Shown here: one piece after another, positions 22,078 to 52,156 of the stretch
Numbering within the stretch: position 1 is the stretch's first letter
Layout of the letters: every line of letters starts with the position of its first letter
Made by a program: the position numbers and the translations under genes
Notes under the pieces: model-generated
The model's input: the letters and a program-made list of their open reading frames with translations, nothing else
Told to the model about the DNA's origin: nothing
Database searches by the model: none
Assembly: GCA_965203355.1 (NCBI GenBank)
Contig: OZ241889.1
Span: forward strand, 1,120,001 to 1,184,000
Length of the DNA: 64,000 bases
From: Candidatus Latescibacterota bacterium
GTDB lineage: Bacteria; Latescibacterota; UBA2968; UBA8231
Direction: 5' to 3'

Positions 22078-22153
22078 GGCCCGTTCGTCTAGAGGCCTAG
22101 GACGCCGGCCTCTCACGCCGGTAACACGGGTTCGAATCCCGTACGGGCTACCA
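22078..22153 (+). tRNA. tRNA-Glu (CTC)
   Basis: Acceptor stem GGCCCGT/ACGGGCT, anticodon arm ccggc-ctCTCac-gccgg, GGTTCGAATCC T-loop, encoded CCA. Confidence 0.97.
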
Positions 22154-36395: not shown

Positions 36396-38009
36396 TCAAC
36401 TCTGGTCTATGCGATAGAGTGCGTAGGGCAGGGGCACAAACTCCACGGGGATGTTCTGCTCGGTCAGCATCTTTTGGCTCACGAAGCGGGTAGAGGCAAA
36501 GACTAGGTGGCGTTTGTCCGGGACCGTCTCCGCAAATTCCTTGGCACGTGTGAGTGTCAGCGCGGAGTCAGGTGACTTCAGCCAGTCGAGATCGGGTTTG
36601 TAGATCAGCCAGACATGCTGGTCCTCGGTCGCGCCGAGATAGAAGTCCGCCTCGCGCACGGTCGCGGGAGTGAGGGCACTGTTGGTCGCCATGTGGAAAA
36701 GTGGTGCAGCAATTCCCAAATAGGAAGGCAGTGTTTCGCCGTTCAGTACCTTGTCTAGTTCGACCGGTGTACCTAGGGTGTAATAGGTGAAGGTGCCGCC
36801 CAGCCCTTCCCGCAAAGACTGAGCCGACGGAACGCCCTTGATGACGTGGCGCACTCGCTCGGCGGTAGTTGTGTCGGCGTATTTCTCACACTCCACCAAG
36901 ATAAACCTGCGATTGCCGCCATCCTCTTTATTGAGTGCCAAGACGGCGTGGGCGGTGGTGCCGCTGCCGGCAAAAGAGTCGAGAACGATAGCGTCTTTTC
37001 TACGCAATATTGCCAGCAAAAACTTCACTAGCTTTGTCGGTTTGGGTTGCGGAAACACTCCCCCCCTGCCGAATAGATCTTGAAGCTCTCGTGTGCCGTC
37101 CTTGTTAAACCCTACCTCTTCTGGCGAAAGAATCGCGTCAGGCGGTTGCCCTTCTTGGACTTCGTTCAGATACCGCTTTGCTTTGGGTTCTCTGCCGGAG
37201 AATACAATGCGATTCCCCTGTTCCATTTCTCGCAGTTTGCATTTCGAGTATCTGGGGTAGCTTCCAGTGGGAGGCTGCCAAATGGTACCATTTGCGAAGG
37301 TGAATATGTAAGGTTCGTAATAGTTTCTTGCATGGATAGGATCAAGCTTGTACTTACCGCGCCCATCATTGTCATCATGCGGATACTTGCTTGCCTTGTC
37401 GGTAATGTGTCGAATGTAACGGGCCTTTTGTGAACTAAACCATGTCTTATCCTTTGCATACGCGAGAACATAGTCAGCGTTGAGGTTAAAGTCCTTGCTG
37501 GAATTGCGGACGGTGTGCATTGCTCTTCTCGTGAGAACAGTAAAAAAATTGATGTCTCCGAAAATTTCATCCATCATCATCCGTAGATGGTGCTGTTCGT
37601 TATCGTCAATAGATACGAAAATCACGCCGTTATCGGCCAGTAATTCCCGCAGTAATCGCAGACGGGGCCACATCATTGCACACCACTTGTCGTGGCGCAG
37701 ACCGTCCTCAATCCCTACCGGGTTCGAATCGAGCCACTCCTTGATCATCGGAGAATTTACGTTGTCGTTATAGCACCAGCTTTCGTTACCGGTGTTGTAA
37801 GGCGGATCGATGTAGATGCAGTCCACCTTGCCCGCGTAGAGCGGCAGAAGTGCCTTGAGGGCGTGTAGGTTGTCGCCGTGAATGATCAGGTTGCCGTCAA
37901 GCGCGACCGGGCCAATGCCCTTGGTCTCGTCCGGGACGAGTGGACGGAAGGGTACGGCGAGGTGATGGTTGTAGACAAATTCCTTGCCTTTGAAATTCAG
38001 ATCGGTCAT
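36396..38009 (-). CDS. Type III R-M Mod subunit (adenine DNA methyltransferase)
   Basis: GDNL, IYIDPPY, FVSIDDNE and DSFAGSGTT motifs. Lower-GC central target-recognition region. Confidence 0.9.
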   Translation of the reverse strand: MTDLNFKGKEFVYNHHLAVPFRPLVPDETKGIGPVALDGNLIIHGDNLHALKALLPLYAGKVDCIYIDPPYNTGNESWCYNDNVNSPMIKEWLDSNPVGIEDGLRHDKWCAMMWPRLRLLRELLADNGVIFVSIDDNEQHHLRMMMDEIFGDINFFTVLTRRAMHTVRNSSKDFNLNADYVLAYAKDKTWFSSQKARYIRHITDKASKYPHDDNDGRGKYKLDPIHARNYYEPYIFTFANGTIWQPPTGSYPRYSKCKLREMEQGNRIVFSGREPKAKRYLNEVQEGQPPDAILSPEEVGFNKDGTRELQDLFGRGGVFPQPKPTKLVKFLLAILRRKDAIVLDSFAGSGTTAHAVLALNKEDGGNRRFILVECEKYADTTTAERVRHVIKGVPSAQSLREGLGGTFTYYTLGTPVELDKVLNGETLPSYLGIAAPLFHMATNSALTPATVREADFYLGATEDQHVWLIYKPDLDWLKSPDSALTLTRAKEFAETVPDKRHLVFASTRFVSQKMLTEQNIPVEFVPLPYALYRIDQS

Positions 38010-45617: not shown

Positions 45618-46421
45618 ATGGAGGATTTAAAGGCTCTAATGATCGTTTTTGCCGGCTGCGTTATGCACGCCGTCCCCGGGCTGGCGCGGTCGGCTGATGA
45701 TGAGAGCGAGGGATACGTCGGCACTATGGTGGCTGTCATTTTGGGTCAGGACCTGCACCATAAAACGGCTTTTATCACCCCTGATAGTACAGAGTTGACG
45801 GTTTCGAGCCATCTCGTTATTGATTACGGAATTGGGTTTGCGGCCGTTGCGGGAAAAGGCATTTCCGATTACACGGCACTTGAATTTACCGGCTCTTGGG
45901 CGAGGCTGCCATCCCATCTCGACGTTCCCCTTCCCTTGCCGCCCCTGTTTGCCGAAGGGCTCTCCCAAAATGGTTTTGAGCTACCTAGCGGTTTCAACTA
46001 TGACGGGAAAACAGTGATACTACAGTCGAAGGTTGATCTTTTGCTTTTCCCGATAAAGATGGCCACGAGTCCCAGCGATGGCGCGAAGCCTTACTTGGGG
46101 GGAGGCTTGGGAATCGTGCGATCGCACCTAGATTTGGATATTGAAAAGGAGGGGTCGCAGGCCGTTATCGAGGCTTTAGGGGAGTTTGCCGAATTGATTG
46201 CCGAAAATCTCGCCAGACACATTCCCGAAAATCTCGCGGAACTTATTCCCGAAAAGATAGACGAAAAAGAAATCGATTTTCAATTGACCCTGCGCGCAGG
46301 TGTAAACATGCCTTTCAACAACATGGACTTAGATTTGGGATGGCAGTTTTATAGAACGTACGTTAATGGAGAAGACAACAACTCCCATGTGGCGAGCGGC
46401 ATCCTGAAGTACGTTTTTTAA
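45618..46421 (+). CDS. Outer-membrane beta-barrel protein (OmpA/opacity-like)
   Basis: Signal peptide, PYLGGGLG, C-terminal Y-x-F. Confidence 0.65.
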   Translation: MEDLKALMIVFAGCVMHAVPGLARSADDESEGYVGTMVAVILGQDLHHKTAFITPDSTELTVSSHLVIDYGIGFAAVAGKGISDYTALEFTGSWARLPSHLDVPLPLPPLFAEGLSQNGFELPSGFNYDGKTVILQSKVDLLLFPIKMATSPSDGAKPYLGGGLGIVRSHLDLDIEKEGSQAVIEALGEFAELIAENLARHIPENLAELIPEKIDEKEIDFQLTLRAGVNMPFNNMDLDLGWQFYRTYVNGEDNNSHVASGILKYVF

Positions 46422-46460
46422 GCGGCTGCGATCTCTGCGCCTTGAAATGATTGAAGTGAT

Positions 46461-46673
46461 GGACGCGCATTGCTCCGAGTGAGAGCTCGGCCTATATTGG
46501 TAACAGTAGCGAGTATATAACTTCCGTTGGGGGTGGTCCGATGGCGGGCCTGAGATTGAGACCCTTCGAACCTAAACTGGATCGTGCCAGCCTAGGGAAA
46601 CGGATGCCGGACGCACCGCTGGCCCATCTGGGGCGAGCGGTTTTTTATGCGCCTGCGACGGAGTCATTCCGCA
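46461..46673 (+). repeat. Duplicated promoter-riboswitch-terminator leader, copy 1
   Basis: Aligns with 48891-49111. Contains TTGCTC-17-TATATT. Confidence 0.9.
46523..46604 (+). ncRNA. TPP riboswitch, variant copy
   Basis: P1 tccgtt/aacgga, GGGG..CTGAGA..ACCC..ACCT(A)..GCCAGC(C)TAGGGAA. Terminator at 46615-46646. Confidence 0.8.
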
Positions 46674-46782
46674 AGGCACCTTTTCTTGCAAACTGGGGCG
46701 ATAAGTGTGTATCATCCGAGCCTTCGTCGCTCCTACCGACGAAGAGGTTGCTTTATATGCCTTAATTAGTGATAGGATTCAG

Positions 46783-47820
46783 ATGATGATAAAAAAGCAA
46801 GCTACCATTAAAGATGTTGCACGGGAGTTGCAGATTTCGCATTCAACCGTCTCACGGGCACTATCTGCGGATCGGAAGGTGTCGGCACTAGTGAAGGAGG
46901 AGACTCGAAAACGGGTGCAGCAAGTAGCCGCCGAGCTTGACTATATTCCCAATTTTATAGCGCAGGGGTTTGTAACGGGGAAGACGGGTACCTTGGGTCT
47001 GCTGACCTATCAGATTTCCCTAGAGATGTTTGGCCGTCAGACTAATCAGATTTTGCAGGAGGCTGATAAGCAGAAGTATCGCATTCTGATGGGCATGGCC
47101 CCTAACCGGTTTCAGGAGTTGCCACTAGAGGATCAAACTTTGCAGATAAAGCAGTTGCTTTCCCGGGGCATAGACGGACTCTTGATTCACACCCGGGGCG
47201 ACCGAGGAGAGGCCGAGCGCATTTTAAGCACCGTGCAGGGACGAATGCCGGTGGTGACTTTTACCGATCCGATTCAAAGTTTGAGTGGAGTCGTGTTGGA
47301 AGAGATAACGAGTTTTTGCGAGGCCACCGAGTATTTGATCCGTCTGGGGCACGAGCGGATCGGGTTTATCGGGACGGACTGGAGTAAGAACCTCGTGGGT
47401 TCAGCCAAGGGCAAGGGGTATATGCTAGCGATGCAAAAGCACGGCTTGACTCCCAAACGCATACCTAGCAAAACCTTTCCCAAAAAACCGACACATCGCT
47501 TAGGGGAAAGGCTGGGCGACCGATTTACAGCTCTTGTGTGCCGAAACGATTACGAGGCCATAATCGCTTGTCACGGACTAAGGGCAGCGGGCTTTCGCGT
47601 CCCCGAGGATGTAGCTGTGGTGGGAAACGGCGATCTGGATTTGGCAGCGTATGTGACACCGGCACTGACGACTTTGGCAATTCCCTACGCGGCGATTGCC
47701 CAGGCGGCGATGGAGTTAATGCTGGAACAGCTTGCAGGGAAGCAGGACGAGCCTCGGCAAGTAGTCTTGAAATCGTCGCTGGTCGTGCGGGAATCTTGTG
47801 GGGCGAACAACAAGAAATAA
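46783..47820 (+). CDS. LacI family transcriptional regulator
   Basis: TIKDVARELQISHSTVSRAL HTH, VPEDVAVVG and LVVRES motifs. Confidence 0.92.
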   Translation: MMIKKQATIKDVARELQISHSTVSRALSADRKVSALVKEETRKRVQQVAAELDYIPNFIAQGFVTGKTGTLGLLTYQISLEMFGRQTNQILQEADKQKYRILMGMAPNRFQELPLEDQTLQIKQLLSRGIDGLLIHTRGDRGEAERILSTVQGRMPVVTFTDPIQSLSGVVLEEITSFCEATEYLIRLGHERIGFIGTDWSKNLVGSAKGKGYMLAMQKHGLTPKRIPSKTFPKKPTHRLGERLGDRFTALVCRNDYEAIIACHGLRAAGFRVPEDVAVVGNGDLDLAAYVTPALTTLAIPYAAIAQAAMELMLEQLAGKQDEPRQVVLKSSLVVRESCGANNKK

Positions 47821-47973: not shown

Positions 47974-48912
47974 ATGAAGCCAGTCAATATGCTTGCAGTA
48001 AATGGTCGGATCCATAAAGGAGTTTTTAGCCAGTTGATAACGCAAGGGATTGTAACAGAGAGGACGGGTACTTTAGGTCTGCTGGCCTGCGAGGTTTTCG
48101 GATCTGTGTTAGGCCGGCAGATCGATCACATTTTGCAGGCAGCGTACAAGCGGAACTATCAGGTCGTGATGGGCCCGATGCATCTGACCCGATTGGACGA
48201 CCAGGCCATACAGGTCGAGGAATTGCTTTCCCAAGGCATAGACGGATTCTTGATTCGGACGCGGGGTGCCAAAGGAGAATTCGCGCACATTTTGCAGACC
48301 ATAAAGAGGCGTGTGCCGGTGGTGACGTTTCACAATCCAACGCAAGTGAGTGGAGTCGTGCTGGACGATACAACGAGTTTTTGCGAGGCCACCGAGCATT
48401 TGATCCGGTTGGGGCACGAGCGGGTTGGGTTTATCGGTGCCGATTGGGACCAGAGCCGCACGGGGTCAGCCAAGGGTAAGGGGTATCTGCTGGCAATGCA
48501 AAAGCACGGATTGATTCCCAAACGCATACCCAGCGAAATCAGCACAGAATCGGGGTATCGCTTGGGCAAAAGACTGGGCGATGGTCTTTTTACGGCCCTT
48601 GTGTGCCGGAACGACTATACGGCGATAGGCGTTTGTCGCGGGCTACAGGAAGCAGGGATTCGCGTACCCGAGGATGTGGCTGTGGTGGGGAGTGGTGCTA
48701 TCGACATGGGGGAATATGTGACACCAGCGCTGACGACCTTGGCGACTCCTTATGAGGCGATTGCCGAGGCGGCAATGGAGTTGATGCTGGAACAGCTTGC
48801 GGGGAGGCTGGATGATCCGCGGCAAATAACCTTGAAATCGCCGCTGGTCGTCCGGGAATCCTGCGGGGCACACCAAAAAAATAATCGCAAGGACGCGCAT
48901 TGCCCCGAGTGA
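47974..48912 (+). CDS. LacI paralog lacking the N-terminal HTH (possible pseudogene)
   Basis: Aligns with the upstream LacI only from QG.VT..TGTLG onward. Confidence 0.7.
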   Translation: MKPVNMLAVNGRIHKGVFSQLITQGIVTERTGTLGLLACEVFGSVLGRQIDHILQAAYKRNYQVVMGPMHLTRLDDQAIQVEELLSQGIDGFLIRTRGAKGEFAHILQTIKRRVPVVTFHNPTQVSGVVLDDTTSFCEATEHLIRLGHERVGFIGADWDQSRTGSAKGKGYLLAMQKHGLIPKRIPSEISTESGYRLGKRLGDGLFTALVCRNDYTAIGVCRGLQEAGIRVPEDVAVVGSGAIDMGEYVTPALTTLATPYEAIAEAAMELMLEQLAGRLDDPRQITLKSPLVVRESCGAHQKNNRKDAHCPE

Positions 48913-49111
48913 GGGCGTGTTCTATATTGTAGAGACATTGAATATAGCTTCCGTTGGGGGTGGTCCGATAGCGGGCCTGAGATTGAGACCCTTCGAACCT
49001 GAACTGGATCGTGCCAGCGTAGGGAAACGGATGCCGTACGCACCGCGTACGCACCGCTGGCCCTTCTGGGGCGAGCGGTTTTTTTGTGCCCTTCGACGGA
49101 GTCATTCCGCA
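48891..49111 (+). repeat. Duplicated promoter-riboswitch-terminator leader, copy 2
   Basis: Aligns with 46461-46673. Contains TTGCCC-17-TATATT. Confidence 0.9.
48950..49031 (+). ncRNA. TPP riboswitch, canonical
   Basis: CTGAGA, ACCTGA and GCCAGCGTAGGGAA. Terminator at 49053-49085. Upstream of thiamine-related genes. Confidence 0.93.
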
Positions 49112-49135: not shown

Positions 49136-51487
49136 ATGAAAATTTCACTATCATCGGTCCGCTTGCTGGCCGGTTTATTGACGCTGTCGGCGTTGTCGCT
49201 GGCGCAGGCCGAGGAAGTGCCCGGCCGAGTGTTGGACGCGGCCACCGGGCATCCTTTGGCCGGGGCCAATGTGCAGGCCGGGAGCGCGGCTACTACTACG
49301 GATGCTCAGGGCCGCTTCAAGGTGGAGGCGGCCTTGGGCGATTCTATTACCATTTCCTACATCGGCTACCAGCGCGTGCGAGTGGCGGTCGTCTCGCCCT
49401 TGGTCGTGGCCTTGGAGCGCGAAATTTTGCCAGCGCCTGAGGTGGTAGTCGAAGGCGGTTTGGTGCGCCAGCGACTCGACCGCTTAGCCGCGAGCGTCAC
49501 GGTGGTAGAGGGGGACCGCTCGCGGACTAGCGGGGCCGGTCACTTGCAAGACGCAACCCATGCCGTGCCCAATTTGAATTGGGCTGGCGGCTCATCGCGG
49601 CCGCGCTATTTCCAGATCCGGGGCATTGGCGAGCGCAGCCATTACGCGGGCGAAGGGCCGCCCAGTTTTTCAGTGGGATTCGTCATGGACGACGTCGATT
49701 TGAGCGGCATGGGCACGGCCGGGTTGCTCTTTGACGTCGATCAGGTCGAAGTTTTCAAAGGCCCTCAGTCGACCATTTTTGGCCCCAACGCCTTGGCCGG
49801 ACTGATTAACTTGCGCTCGGCCGACCCCCAGCCGGAGTTTGCCGGAGCGGGCAGTGCCGAGATGGGCAGCGATGGTTTAGGGCGTTTTTCCGGGGCGGTC
49901 AACCTGCCAGTAGGCGCCGATTTGGCGCTGCGCGTGGGGTACGAGAACGGCCGGGCCAACGGCTTTCGCTCCAACGCTTTTCTCGATGCCGACGATACCA
50001 ATGCCCGGCGCGAGCAGTTGCTGCGCGCCAAGGTCGGCTGGACCCCAGCGGTTGGTCCCGAGGTGTTAGGTACCTTCTTTTGGGCTGATATGGATAACGG
50101 ATACGACGCTTGGGCACCCGACAACAACGAGGATTTGACCACTTACGCTGACAGGCCGGGCAAGGATCGCCAGCAGACGACAGGGGCCTCGCTCAAGAGT
50201 GCTTGGGAGCTAGGGGCGACCGGGGCTGAGTTCGTCGCGATTACCGCATTTTCGCGCAGCAAGTTGGAGCACAGTTTCGACGGCGATTGGGGCAACGACG
50301 AGTACTGGCTGCGTGCGCCGTACGAATTCGACCCAGCAGTCGAGGGGTGGAGTTACGACTTTTTCGACCGCAATGGGCGCGACCGCACGGTGGTGAGCCA
50401 AGAGGCCCGGCTCTTGGTCGAGGAACTGGTGGTAGGGGCCTATTGGAAGCGGCTCGAAGAGGAAGACCAGGCCGAGGGCTATTTGTTCGGCGGCGACGCC
50501 ACCGAGCTGAACGGACGCTACGAAATCGACAACCTCGCTTTTTACGGTCAGTACGGGTTGGCCTTGGGCGAAAAGTTGCGGCTGGAAGTCAATGCGCGGC
50601 TCGACCGCAACGACACGGCCTATGAAGGAACGACCGCGAATGACGGCGCCGATAGCACCAGCACTGCGTTCGCCGTTGATCAATGGTTGGGCGGCGGCAA
50701 AGCGGCCCTCAGTTACACTTGGCGTTTGGGCCATACTTTATACGCTTCGGCCTCGCGTGGCTACCGCTCGGGCGGGGTCAACCAGCATCCGTACTTGGCG
50801 GCGGCGAACCGCCCCTACGACCCCGAGCACATCGTCAATCTCGAACTCGGCTGGCGGCTCAGCGGGCCGCGCTCTTCCATCGGACTGACTCTGTTCCACG
50901 CGCTGCGCTCGGACCAGCAGGTCGAGCTGTCGAGCCAGCAGGATCCGGGCGACCCCAACAGCTTCTTTTACTTTACGGCCAATGCCGGCAAAGGCCGCAA
51001 CAGCGGCTTGGAATGGGAGCATACTGTCCGCCTCTTGCCCCAAGTCGAACTCTTCGGCTCAGTGGGCTTGCTCACTACGCACGTTGATACGTACACCTTC
51101 CCCACGGAAGATGGGGCAGTAACGCTGGGGGACCGGGCCGCCGCCCACGCGCCCAACTACACCTTCAGCGTGGGCGGTGCCTATCGCCATCAGTCGGGTT
51201 TGGGGGCGCGCTTGGTCCTGACCGGCATGGACCAATTCTTCTACTCCGATAGCCACGACCAAGTCTCGGAGCCGTACCAATTGGTCAACGCCCATATTGC
51301 CTACGAGCGGGAAGCGTGGTCTGTGCAGCTATGGGGCCGCAACGTGCTCGACAAGCGCTATGGGGTGCGGGGTTTCTACTTTGGCTTGGAACCGCCGGAT
51401 TATGCTGACAAGCTGTACGAAACCCATGGCGATCCGCGCCAAGTCGGCGTGCGGCTGACGACGCAATTTTCTTCTTTGGGGAACTAA
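49136..51487 (+). CDS. TonB-dependent receptor, probably for thiamine
   Basis: Signal peptide, plug motifs FQIRGIG and EVFKGPQSTIFG, WGRNVLD. TPP riboswitch upstream. Confidence 0.88.
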   Translation: MKISLSSVRLLAGLLTLSALSLAQAEEVPGRVLDAATGHPLAGANVQAGSAATTTDAQGRFKVEAALGDSITISYIGYQRVRVAVVSPLVVALEREILPAPEVVVEGGLVRQRLDRLAASVTVVEGDRSRTSGAGHLQDATHAVPNLNWAGGSSRPRYFQIRGIGERSHYAGEGPPSFSVGFVMDDVDLSGMGTAGLLFDVDQVEVFKGPQSTIFGPNALAGLINLRSADPQPEFAGAGSAEMGSDGLGRFSGAVNLPVGADLALRVGYENGRANGFRSNAFLDADDTNARREQLLRAKVGWTPAVGPEVLGTFFWADMDNGYDAWAPDNNEDLTTYADRPGKDRQQTTGASLKSAWELGATGAEFVAITAFSRSKLEHSFDGDWGNDEYWLRAPYEFDPAVEGWSYDFFDRNGRDRTVVSQEARLLVEELVVGAYWKRLEEEDQAEGYLFGGDATELNGRYEIDNLAFYGQYGLALGEKLRLEVNARLDRNDTAYEGTTANDGADSTSTAFAVDQWLGGGKAALSYTWRLGHTLYASASRGYRSGGVNQHPYLAAANRPYDPEHIVNLELGWRLSGPRSSIGLTLFHALRSDQQVELSSQQDPGDPNSFFYFTANAGKGRNSGLEWEHTVRLLPQVELFGSVGLLTTHVDTYTFPTEDGAVTLGDRAAAHAPNYTFSVGGAYRHQSGLGARLVLTGMDQFFYSDSHDQVSEPYQLVNAHIAYEREAWSVQLWGRNVLDKRYGVRGFYFGLEPPDYADKLYETHGDPRQVGVRLTTQFSSLGN

Positions 51488-51490
51488 ACC

Positions 51491-52156
51491 GTGGGCGGTC
51501 GGTCTGCGCTGGTCGTCGGCAATGGCGAGCCACCTTCCCGAGCATTATTCGCTGCCTGCGCGCAAGAAGCCGAGCTGATCTTGTGCGCCGATGGCGGAGC
51601 CAATACCGCCTCGGCGTACGGATACGCGCCCGATTACGTCGTCGGCGACCTCGACTCGGTTAGCCGCCAAAGCAAGGCTGCCCTCGCCGCCGACCGCTTC
51701 ATCCTCGTTGACCCCGAGGGCCATGTAGGCACAGATGGCCAAAAAGTCCTCAACCACGCCGTCGCCTTGGGCGTTACTGAAGCCGTGCTCGTCGGTTTTA
51801 CGGGGCGGCGCACCGATCACTTGTTGGGCAACTTGAGCCTGCTCAAGACATTTGCCGACCGCCTCGCCCTGCGCCTAGTGGACTCCTACTGCGACATCCG
51901 CCTCATTGACCGCCGCATTCGCTTCCGCGCCGTTATGGGTCAGAAAATTTCCCTATGCCCACTTAACGGGGCGGTGGAAGGTATTGAGACGTTTGGCTTA
52001 AAATGGCCCTTGCGGTCTGAGAGCCTCATTCCGGGTGTGCGCGACGGCATCTCCAATGAAGTGGTAGCCAACCCCGTCGAAATTCGCGTCGAGCGCGGCG
52101 ATCTGCTGTTGTGTGTGCAGCGGGAGGGAAGTGCTGGCGAGATTGTGGTGGAGTGA
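51491..52156 (+). CDS. thiN: Thiamine diphosphokinase
   Basis: CADGGAN, GDLDS, TD, GRRTDH and GISN motifs. Confidence 0.9.
   Translation: MGGRSALVVGNGEPPSRALFAACAQEAELILCADGGANTASAYGYAPDYVVGDLDSVSRQSKAALAADRFILVDPEGHVGTDGQKVLNHAVALGVTEAVLVGFTGRRTDHLLGNLSLLKTFADRLALRLVDSYCDIRLIDRRIRFRAVMGQKISLCPLNGAVEGIETFGLKWPLRSESLIPGVRDGISNEVVANPVEIRVERGDLLLCVQREGSAGEIVVE

Follow-up and report, generated by a model that had tools for sequence, protein, structure and literature searches.

The window analysed here, a stretch of 64,000 nucleotides from the genome of a marine Candidatus Latescibacterota bacterium, contains two thiamine pyrophosphate (TPP) leaders that lie as direct repeats on either side of a LacI cassette, upstream of a putative thiamine receptor–kinase operon (Table 1). 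From 5′ to 3′, the order is a 267-aa ORF, a variant leader, a full-length LacI-family gene, a LacI-family ORF without a helix-turn-helix (HTH), a canonical leader, a TonB-dependent receptor gene and a thiamine diphosphokinase gene. The two leader copies are offset by 2427 nt with two ORFs between them, and a separate promoter-like site precedes each. The survey of TPP leaders in this strain covered the 64-kb window. The nearest relatives of the receptor are 86–91% identical to it, and their records are mostly titled Ca. Latescibacterota.

Table 1. Coordinates of genes and leader elements around the LacI cassette (window numbering).
Feature	Position	Strand	Details
267-aa ORF	45618–46421	+	ORF call; 5′ of the variant leader
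5′ copy of the duplicated thiamine leader, with promoter, aptamer, platform and terminator	46461–46674	+	Direct repeat to the left of the LacI cassette
Promoter-like site of this 5′ copy, TTGCTC-17-TATATT	46470–46498	+	Read from the sequence; under scan threshold
TPP-aptamer variant	46519–46615	+	RF00059, 61.0 bits; G60A (46574), G78C (46592), A>G (46543), G>A (46520)
Broken expression platform (predicted)	46599–46625	+	Antiterminator hairpin lost through an 11-nt deletion; weaker hairpin, independent of P1, from T>G at 46610
Intrinsic-terminator-like hairpin and T run, intact	46616–46646	+	−18.3 kcal/mol (folding)
Promoter-like site of the LacI gene, TTGCAA-18-TATCAT	46686–46715	+	Promoter scan; 3′ of the terminator
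LacI-family regulator, full length (HTH and sensor domain)	46783–47820	+	Pfam PF00356, PF13377
Second LacI-family ORF, without HTH	47974–48912	+	
Canonical thiamine leader, right direct repeat	48900–49085	+	Promoter-like site 48900–48928, aptamer 48946–49042, antiterminator hairpin, terminator 49054–49085
TonB-dependent receptor	49136–51487	+	Pfam PF00593, PF07715
Thiamine diphosphokinase	51491–52156	+	TIGR01378 over cut-off; PF04263, PF04265

The 267-aa ORF has no match in Pfam or NCBIfam, and its homologues occupy the same place in many relatives at 54–83% identity, in two apparent allele groups. It is probably a barrel-like outer-membrane protein, as its signal-peptide-like start and terminal Phe suggest. 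The TonB-dependent receptor presumably transports thiamine, judging from the riboswitch in front of it and the gene that follows it. An NCBIfam search with the full-length LacI-family regulator gave no equivalog over the cut-off. The HTH-less LacI-family ORF is kept open over about 286–314 codons in the window and in 14 relatives (L006–L009, L011–L014, L016, L018, L019, L021, L022 and L024) and is frameshifted in L003. As a guess, an HTH-less LacI sensor beside a full LacI protein could act as an effector sink or a dominant-negative partner. Elsewhere in the window lie a tRNA gene at 22078–22150 on the forward strand and, on the reverse strand at 36396–38009, a 537-aa ORF with a DPPY motif, which we take to be DNA adenine methyltransferase-like.

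An earlier note on this DNA described the upstream leader as a duplicate of the downstream riboswitch that differs at only three positions in the 82 nt of the aptamer and has lost two pyrophosphate-sensing guanines, G60 and G78 in the numbering of E. coli thiM. The comparison with the RF00059 covariance model that it proposed places both copies above the gathering score of 54.3 bits (68.2 bits at 48946–49042 and 61.0 bits at 46519–46615). Exactly three differences are found in the 82 nt, namely A>G at 46543 in the P3 loop, G>A at 46574 and G>C at 46592, and the thiM numbering is right, with 46574 directly after the 5′ strand of P4 (U59) and 46592 two bases before A80. Outside the 82 nt the description is incomplete. 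Two more substitutions, at 46520 (G>A) and 46610 (T>G), escaped it, as did an 11-nt deletion, which alignment to the downstream copy reveals as a missing unit between P1 and the terminator. The UGAGA loop, P1 and terminator are intact as described; the promoter, also called intact, falls below the scan threshold but has hexamers that match those of L010. The pyrimidine pocket (J3/2 UGAGA) and the P1–P5 fold are retained together with L5, and the pyrophosphate–metal site (G60, C77 and G78) is not complete, carrying G60A and G78C. The available text of PMC3764141 places G60 in J4/5 and C77 and G78 in J5/4 at this site, and that of bioRxiv 10.1101/2025.01.21.634073 also places G60 and G78 there. 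From this structural role of the two guanines we infer that the variant has lost TPP binding. A literature search gave no usable direct data on point mutants of G60 or G78.

Near-identical repeats are a setting prone to assembler error, and the two leader copies form such a pair. An assembly or sequencing error in the repeat, which the earlier note had named as a possible refutation, is nevertheless hardly credible. Run X4, which comes from a different study, carries 46382–46799 within one contig with 0 differences, G60A and G78C included, and run X1, possibly the source run, carries the entire 4.2 kb in one contig. The longest identical stretch between the two copies is 30 nt. Run X7 holds short low-depth pieces only, none of which covers the variant.

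What looks like an 11-nt repeat in the canonical leader is predicted to fold as a hairpin that extends into the antiterminator, in which the 3′ strand of P1 pairs with the 5′ arm of the terminator. Across 27 aligned leaders, 95.9% of the cells pair in this antiterminator, compared with at most 60% when the strands are slid. Covariation amounts to one pair with a two-sided change, and 20 of 500 shuffles score as high. The antiterminator pairing can be regarded as well predicted by folding and weakly proven. The terminator consensus scan listed the terminator hairpin of neither copy, and the terminators are predictions by folding, as is the loss of the antiterminator in the variant. The predicted pairing probability between the 3′ strand of P1 and the terminator arm is 0.02 in the variant and 0.57–0.99 in 28 other leaders, and the expression platform of the variant is therefore predicted not to be coupled to P1.

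Alternative helices are predicted in the variant despite the lost pairing between P1 and the terminator. T>G at 46610 yields a local hairpin of −7.6 kcal/mol in the folding and a long-range helix across the terminator arm. This long-range helix is exclusive with P2/P3 at nearly equal energy (−0.5 kcal/mol), and the terminator 5′ arm is paired at 0.88 via alternative helices in the folding intermediate of the variant. Refolding into the long-range helix requires about 19 kcal/mol, compared with about 10 kcal/mol for the native antiterminator in four other leaders. A plain constitutive terminator was considered as a reading of the variant and was softened, as equilibrium folding gave no stronger terminator state (cost of opening 8.9 kcal/mol, within the range of 4.8–12.2 kcal/mol for 26 others). 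Folding does not settle whether the variant leader mainly stops or mainly leaks.

The promoter-like site of the upstream copy fails the scan threshold that the site of the downstream copy passes. Its hexamers are the same as in L010, L012 and L013, and the sole leader of L010 drives the receptor gene. The promoter-like site of the LacI gene itself recurs in L006, L012, L013, L018 and L024, and only its −10 half is present in L003. It persists in L006 and L024 after the loss of the riboswitch. In a survey of 18 loci, no LacI site passed the threshold in eight, and a different site passed in three. Between this LacI site and the start codon lies a hairpin at 46722–46744, kept with changes in several relatives, which could be an operator palindrome or a stem in the 5′ leader.

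Among 55 loci of relatives, 39 were mapped, the set ending before the distant partial matches L040–L055. Of these, 23 (L003–L024 and L038) form a close group, in which a LacI gene before the leader is absent in four (L010, L017, L023 and L038), one or two LacI genes are present in 18, and L005 is not scorable at its contig end. Both leaders are found in three of the 18 scorable cassette-bearing loci (L012, L013 and L018), and the other 15 have the downstream leader alone. Whole-genome RF00059 searches in five of these relatives gave the same leader counts as locus mapping, and RF00059 scans of eight loci and five genomes found no copies besides those mapped. Four of the 15 junctions without an upstream aptamer keep leader pieces with differing breakpoints: both flanks in L003, the 3′ tail in L006, the T run and tail in L024, and the terminator and tail in L014. 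In the last (L014, 5170–5240), the aptamer is gone and the 3′ strand of P1, a single-unit platform like that of the window and the terminator are left, that is, a riboswitch cut down to a bare terminator. When 25 segments of promoter plus leader were placed on a tree, all four copies from the upstream position joined the sole leader of the cassette-less L010 (92/95, below the starred level). The receptor-gene tree is mostly unresolved, with 13 of 23 inner branches open, too open to root the history.

The upstream leaders of L012 (5366–5515), L013 (5366–5515) and L018 (182–331) are fully canonical TPP leaders with an antiterminator, directly 5′ of a LacI pair. All three, which belong to other species, retain G60, G78 and the 11 nt. 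They show one or two differences in 138 nt, as few as the downstream leader, and the four-fold sites of the LacI genes in the same loci differ at 8–11% (13/171 to 19/168), far above the upstream leader (p 7e-5 to 0.003). Compared with their own flanks, these leaders carry marginally fewer changes (p 0.03–0.15). Such a pattern suggests that the upstream leader in these loci may be under selection, perhaps as a working TPP switch, or that the segment was recently shared. Gene conversion was rejected as the main cause of the intact upstream copies, which differ from one another by 1–2 changes and from their own downstream copies by 3–5.

Run X5, labelled as a sponge metagenome, contains a strain about 95–97% identical to the one in the window. 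Contig ends fall at 46550 and 48977 and contig starts at 49017 and 46593, the last with three letters that do not align. A further contig, 99 nt long and of raised depth, corresponds to 48948–49046 (0 differences). All five values are precisely those to be expected if both copies of that strain share the canonical 99-nt core and the upstream copy is already without the 11 nt, a reading that is built on contig ends rather than printed letters and that gene conversion in the X5 strain could mimic. The platform deletion apparently preceded the aptamer changes in this lineage.

The variant is probably a stranded duplicate leader under relaxed selection, which was uncoupled and then drifted and which is at most a TPP-blind terminator or attenuator. 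In the simplest history, a two-gene LacI cassette would have come to lie between two direct leader copies and would have stranded one of them before LacI genes with their own promoter; the arrangement is seen in the window, and we infer its direction. Relatives show that the upstream copy is dispensable: it was repeatedly lost by deletion among them, and one retains the terminator alone. As contig geometry and folding suggest, a slip deletion of 11 nt would have taken the antiterminator, so that P1 would no longer compete with the terminator and ligand binding would not be passed on. Once the aptamer was no longer under selection, G60A, G78C and two further changes may have accrued at roughly the rate of the background. 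If the leader still functions at all, it most likely terminates or attenuates transcription, blind to TPP, in the interval from the upstream gene to the LacI promoter. The variant lacks three traits of a working RF00059 member (the pyrophosphate site, a coupled platform and a thiamine gene downstream) and is therefore not classed as a functional TPP riboswitch.

Relaxed selection is consistent with the number of changes. With flanks that have diverged by 3.5%, four changes are the load to be expected in 99 nt (Poisson p 0.46; p 0.10 on the assumption that a single branch carries them all), and the difference between 4/99 changes in the upstream copy and 0/99 in the downstream copy is not significant (p 0.06). 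The position of the changes counts against plain decay. The two pyrophosphate guanines took two of the three aptamer changes (post hoc p 0.0009, 0.003 and 0.009 for targets of 2, 3 and 5 bases), although p is 0.93 when the test is run on the 68 positions that do not vary among 26 other leaders. Such clustering would be expected if selection had removed unwanted TPP control of the LacI genes or, after the deletion, a constant stop. G60A and G78C would then abolish TPP sensing, and the helices made by T>G at 46610, both the local hairpin and the long-range one over the terminator arm, would hold that arm open without P1 and allow constant read-through. In three related species the upstream leader also seems to be under constraint and therefore in use, and many relatives have removed it outright. 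However, the deletion had apparently cut the link between P1 and the terminator while the aptamer was canonical, which would have left the aptamer changes little to influence; the long-range helix faces the higher refolding cost given above; a promoter-like site of its own precedes the LacI gene; and the total change is at the background rate. Selection for a deaf leader is accordingly unlikely, though it deserves to be kept in mind. The earlier suggestion of a leader selected to ignore TPP is probably right as to the outcome, TPP blindness, in which selection could have had a part (post hoc p 0.001–0.009).

The pair G60A/G78C has been found in this strain and in run X4 only. Among 167 genomes of the phylum, a pattern left free at positions 60 and 78, which recovers both copies of the window including the variant itself, matched 110 times in 91 genomes, and all 110 have G at both positions. 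With a tolerance of one mismatch, so that a single one of the two changes would also be picked up, the variant pattern matched 0 of the 167, and the exact lineage motif found three loci in metagenome contigs, all canonical. The general G60A/G78C pattern gave 0 stretches in viral contigs and none in 401 sampled genomes from the phylum of G168; these two results are weak because canonical copies were left uncounted there. The collections hold one genome per species, many of them incomplete, and further carriers are possible. The earlier note had proposed a search for the pair upstream of LacI genes in relatives, with decay in its place speaking against a functional change. The pair occurs in 0 of 3 orthologous copies and 0 of 167 phylum genomes, and the relatives largely show the latter course, with deletions of the copy.

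These counts bear on the possibility that the variant, with an intact pyrimidine pocket, no longer discriminates the pyrophosphate and senses thiamine, TMP or an HMP-like compound, with the LacI genes controlled via the new long-range helix in competition with P2/P3. The intact UGAGA loop and P1–P5 and the near-equal energy of the helix exclusive with P2/P3 are in line with such a switch. It also has a precedent in kind: the available text of PMC5473149 and PMC9481103, both citing unpublished work, describes natural P4–P5 variants of the TPP riboswitch that do not discriminate thiamine, TMP and TPP, sensing thiamine about as well as TPP. Engineered thiM mutants of the pyrophosphate site, as described in the available part of bioRxiv 10.1101/2025.01.21.634073, fold and bind synthetic ligands of the pyrimidine site. 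In the present case, however, the pair is confined to one strain and absent from the three orthologous copies, which keep the guanines; most relatives deleted the copy; the native platform is gone, apparently from before the aptamer changes, and the refolding barrier is high; neither LacI-family gene matches a thiamine-linked family in Pfam or NCBIfam; and loss of contacts would be expected to weaken binding rather than retarget it. The specificity switch put forward in the earlier note is therefore very improbable. Equally slight is the chance that the riboswitch is changing its job, a TPP leader co-opted before the LacI pair with its native antiterminator swapped for the helix competing with P2/P3 and with sensing of thiamine, TMP or an HMP-like ligand.

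As a stranded duplicate, the variant descends from a terminating TPP riboswitch of the type that precedes thiamine transport genes (RF00059, E. coli thiM numbering), and P1–P5, the UGAGA loop, L5 and the terminator are present. It differs from RF00059 members in the replacement of G60 and G78, in the deletion of the antiterminator and in the LacI genes that stand downstream instead of a thiamine gene. With the P4–P5 variants it shares changes in the pyrophosphate core and a canonical copy in the same genome. However, those variants are a large collection in many bacteria according to the available text of PMC5473149 and PMC9481103, whereas this one is from a single strain and has a broken platform. 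The comparison is by description, as that text does not give the exact substitutions, and a literature search found no paper with the substitutions of thiamine- or TMP-sensing P4–P5 variants among the matches listed.

Tandem TPP riboswitches (PMC9481103, available text) likewise place two TPP-class elements near each other in one genome, but the two stand in one leader before one ORF, whereas the copies here are far apart, with two genes between them and separate promoter-like sites. The HMP-PP riboswitch (thiS motif; PMC6478431) senses a thiamine precursor, a ligand that the earlier note had proposed, but is a separate fold embedded in a terminator, and in the present case Rfam found RF00059 only. 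The engineered thiM mutants A61U and A61U/C63U/G78U likewise change the pyrophosphate site with the pyrimidine site intact, and their TPP response is reduced (bioRxiv 10.1101/2025.01.21.634073, available part). They are laboratory selections for synthetic ligands with other substitutions, G60A and G78C not being among those described there. A search of the literature for a TPP riboswitch together with LacI or Latescibacter showed no such link among the matches listed.

A decaying duplicate alone is of little importance. The close relatives, however, supply a natural series in one genus, from an intact copy through a platform deletion, a deletion with aptamer changes and a terminator alone to full loss, which shows the stepwise loss of a spare riboswitch and can be assayed step by step. 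The case also calls for caution with Rfam matches, because altered contacts to the ligand, even together with a different gene downstream, do not by themselves establish a new ligand class. TPP control of LacI regulators by the intact upstream copies in three species, if real, would be a link seldom seen in gene regulation. A response of the variant to thiamine or HMP would make it a rarely caught case of changing specificity, with its ancestor close by, and a true change of job would tie a carbohydrate-type regulator to free vitamin B1.

Several further rearrangements are seen in the relatives. L001, a 1008-nt metagenome contig, runs from a LacI 3′ end through a canonical leader and about 75 nt of the receptor gene into a new LacI start; either the unit has been duplicated once more or the contig is misassembled. 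L001 and L014 suggest that the repeat may once have extended into the start of the receptor gene. In L015 (6400–6750), the first codons of the single LacI gene are replaced by another stretch, which reads like what is presumably the 3′ end of an IS5-type transposase. Extra 3′ ends of thiamine diphosphokinase genes lie 1–2 kb downstream in L011 (12977–13099), L016 (13171–13299) and L020 (12161–12280), and short local duplications therefore appear to be common in the genus.
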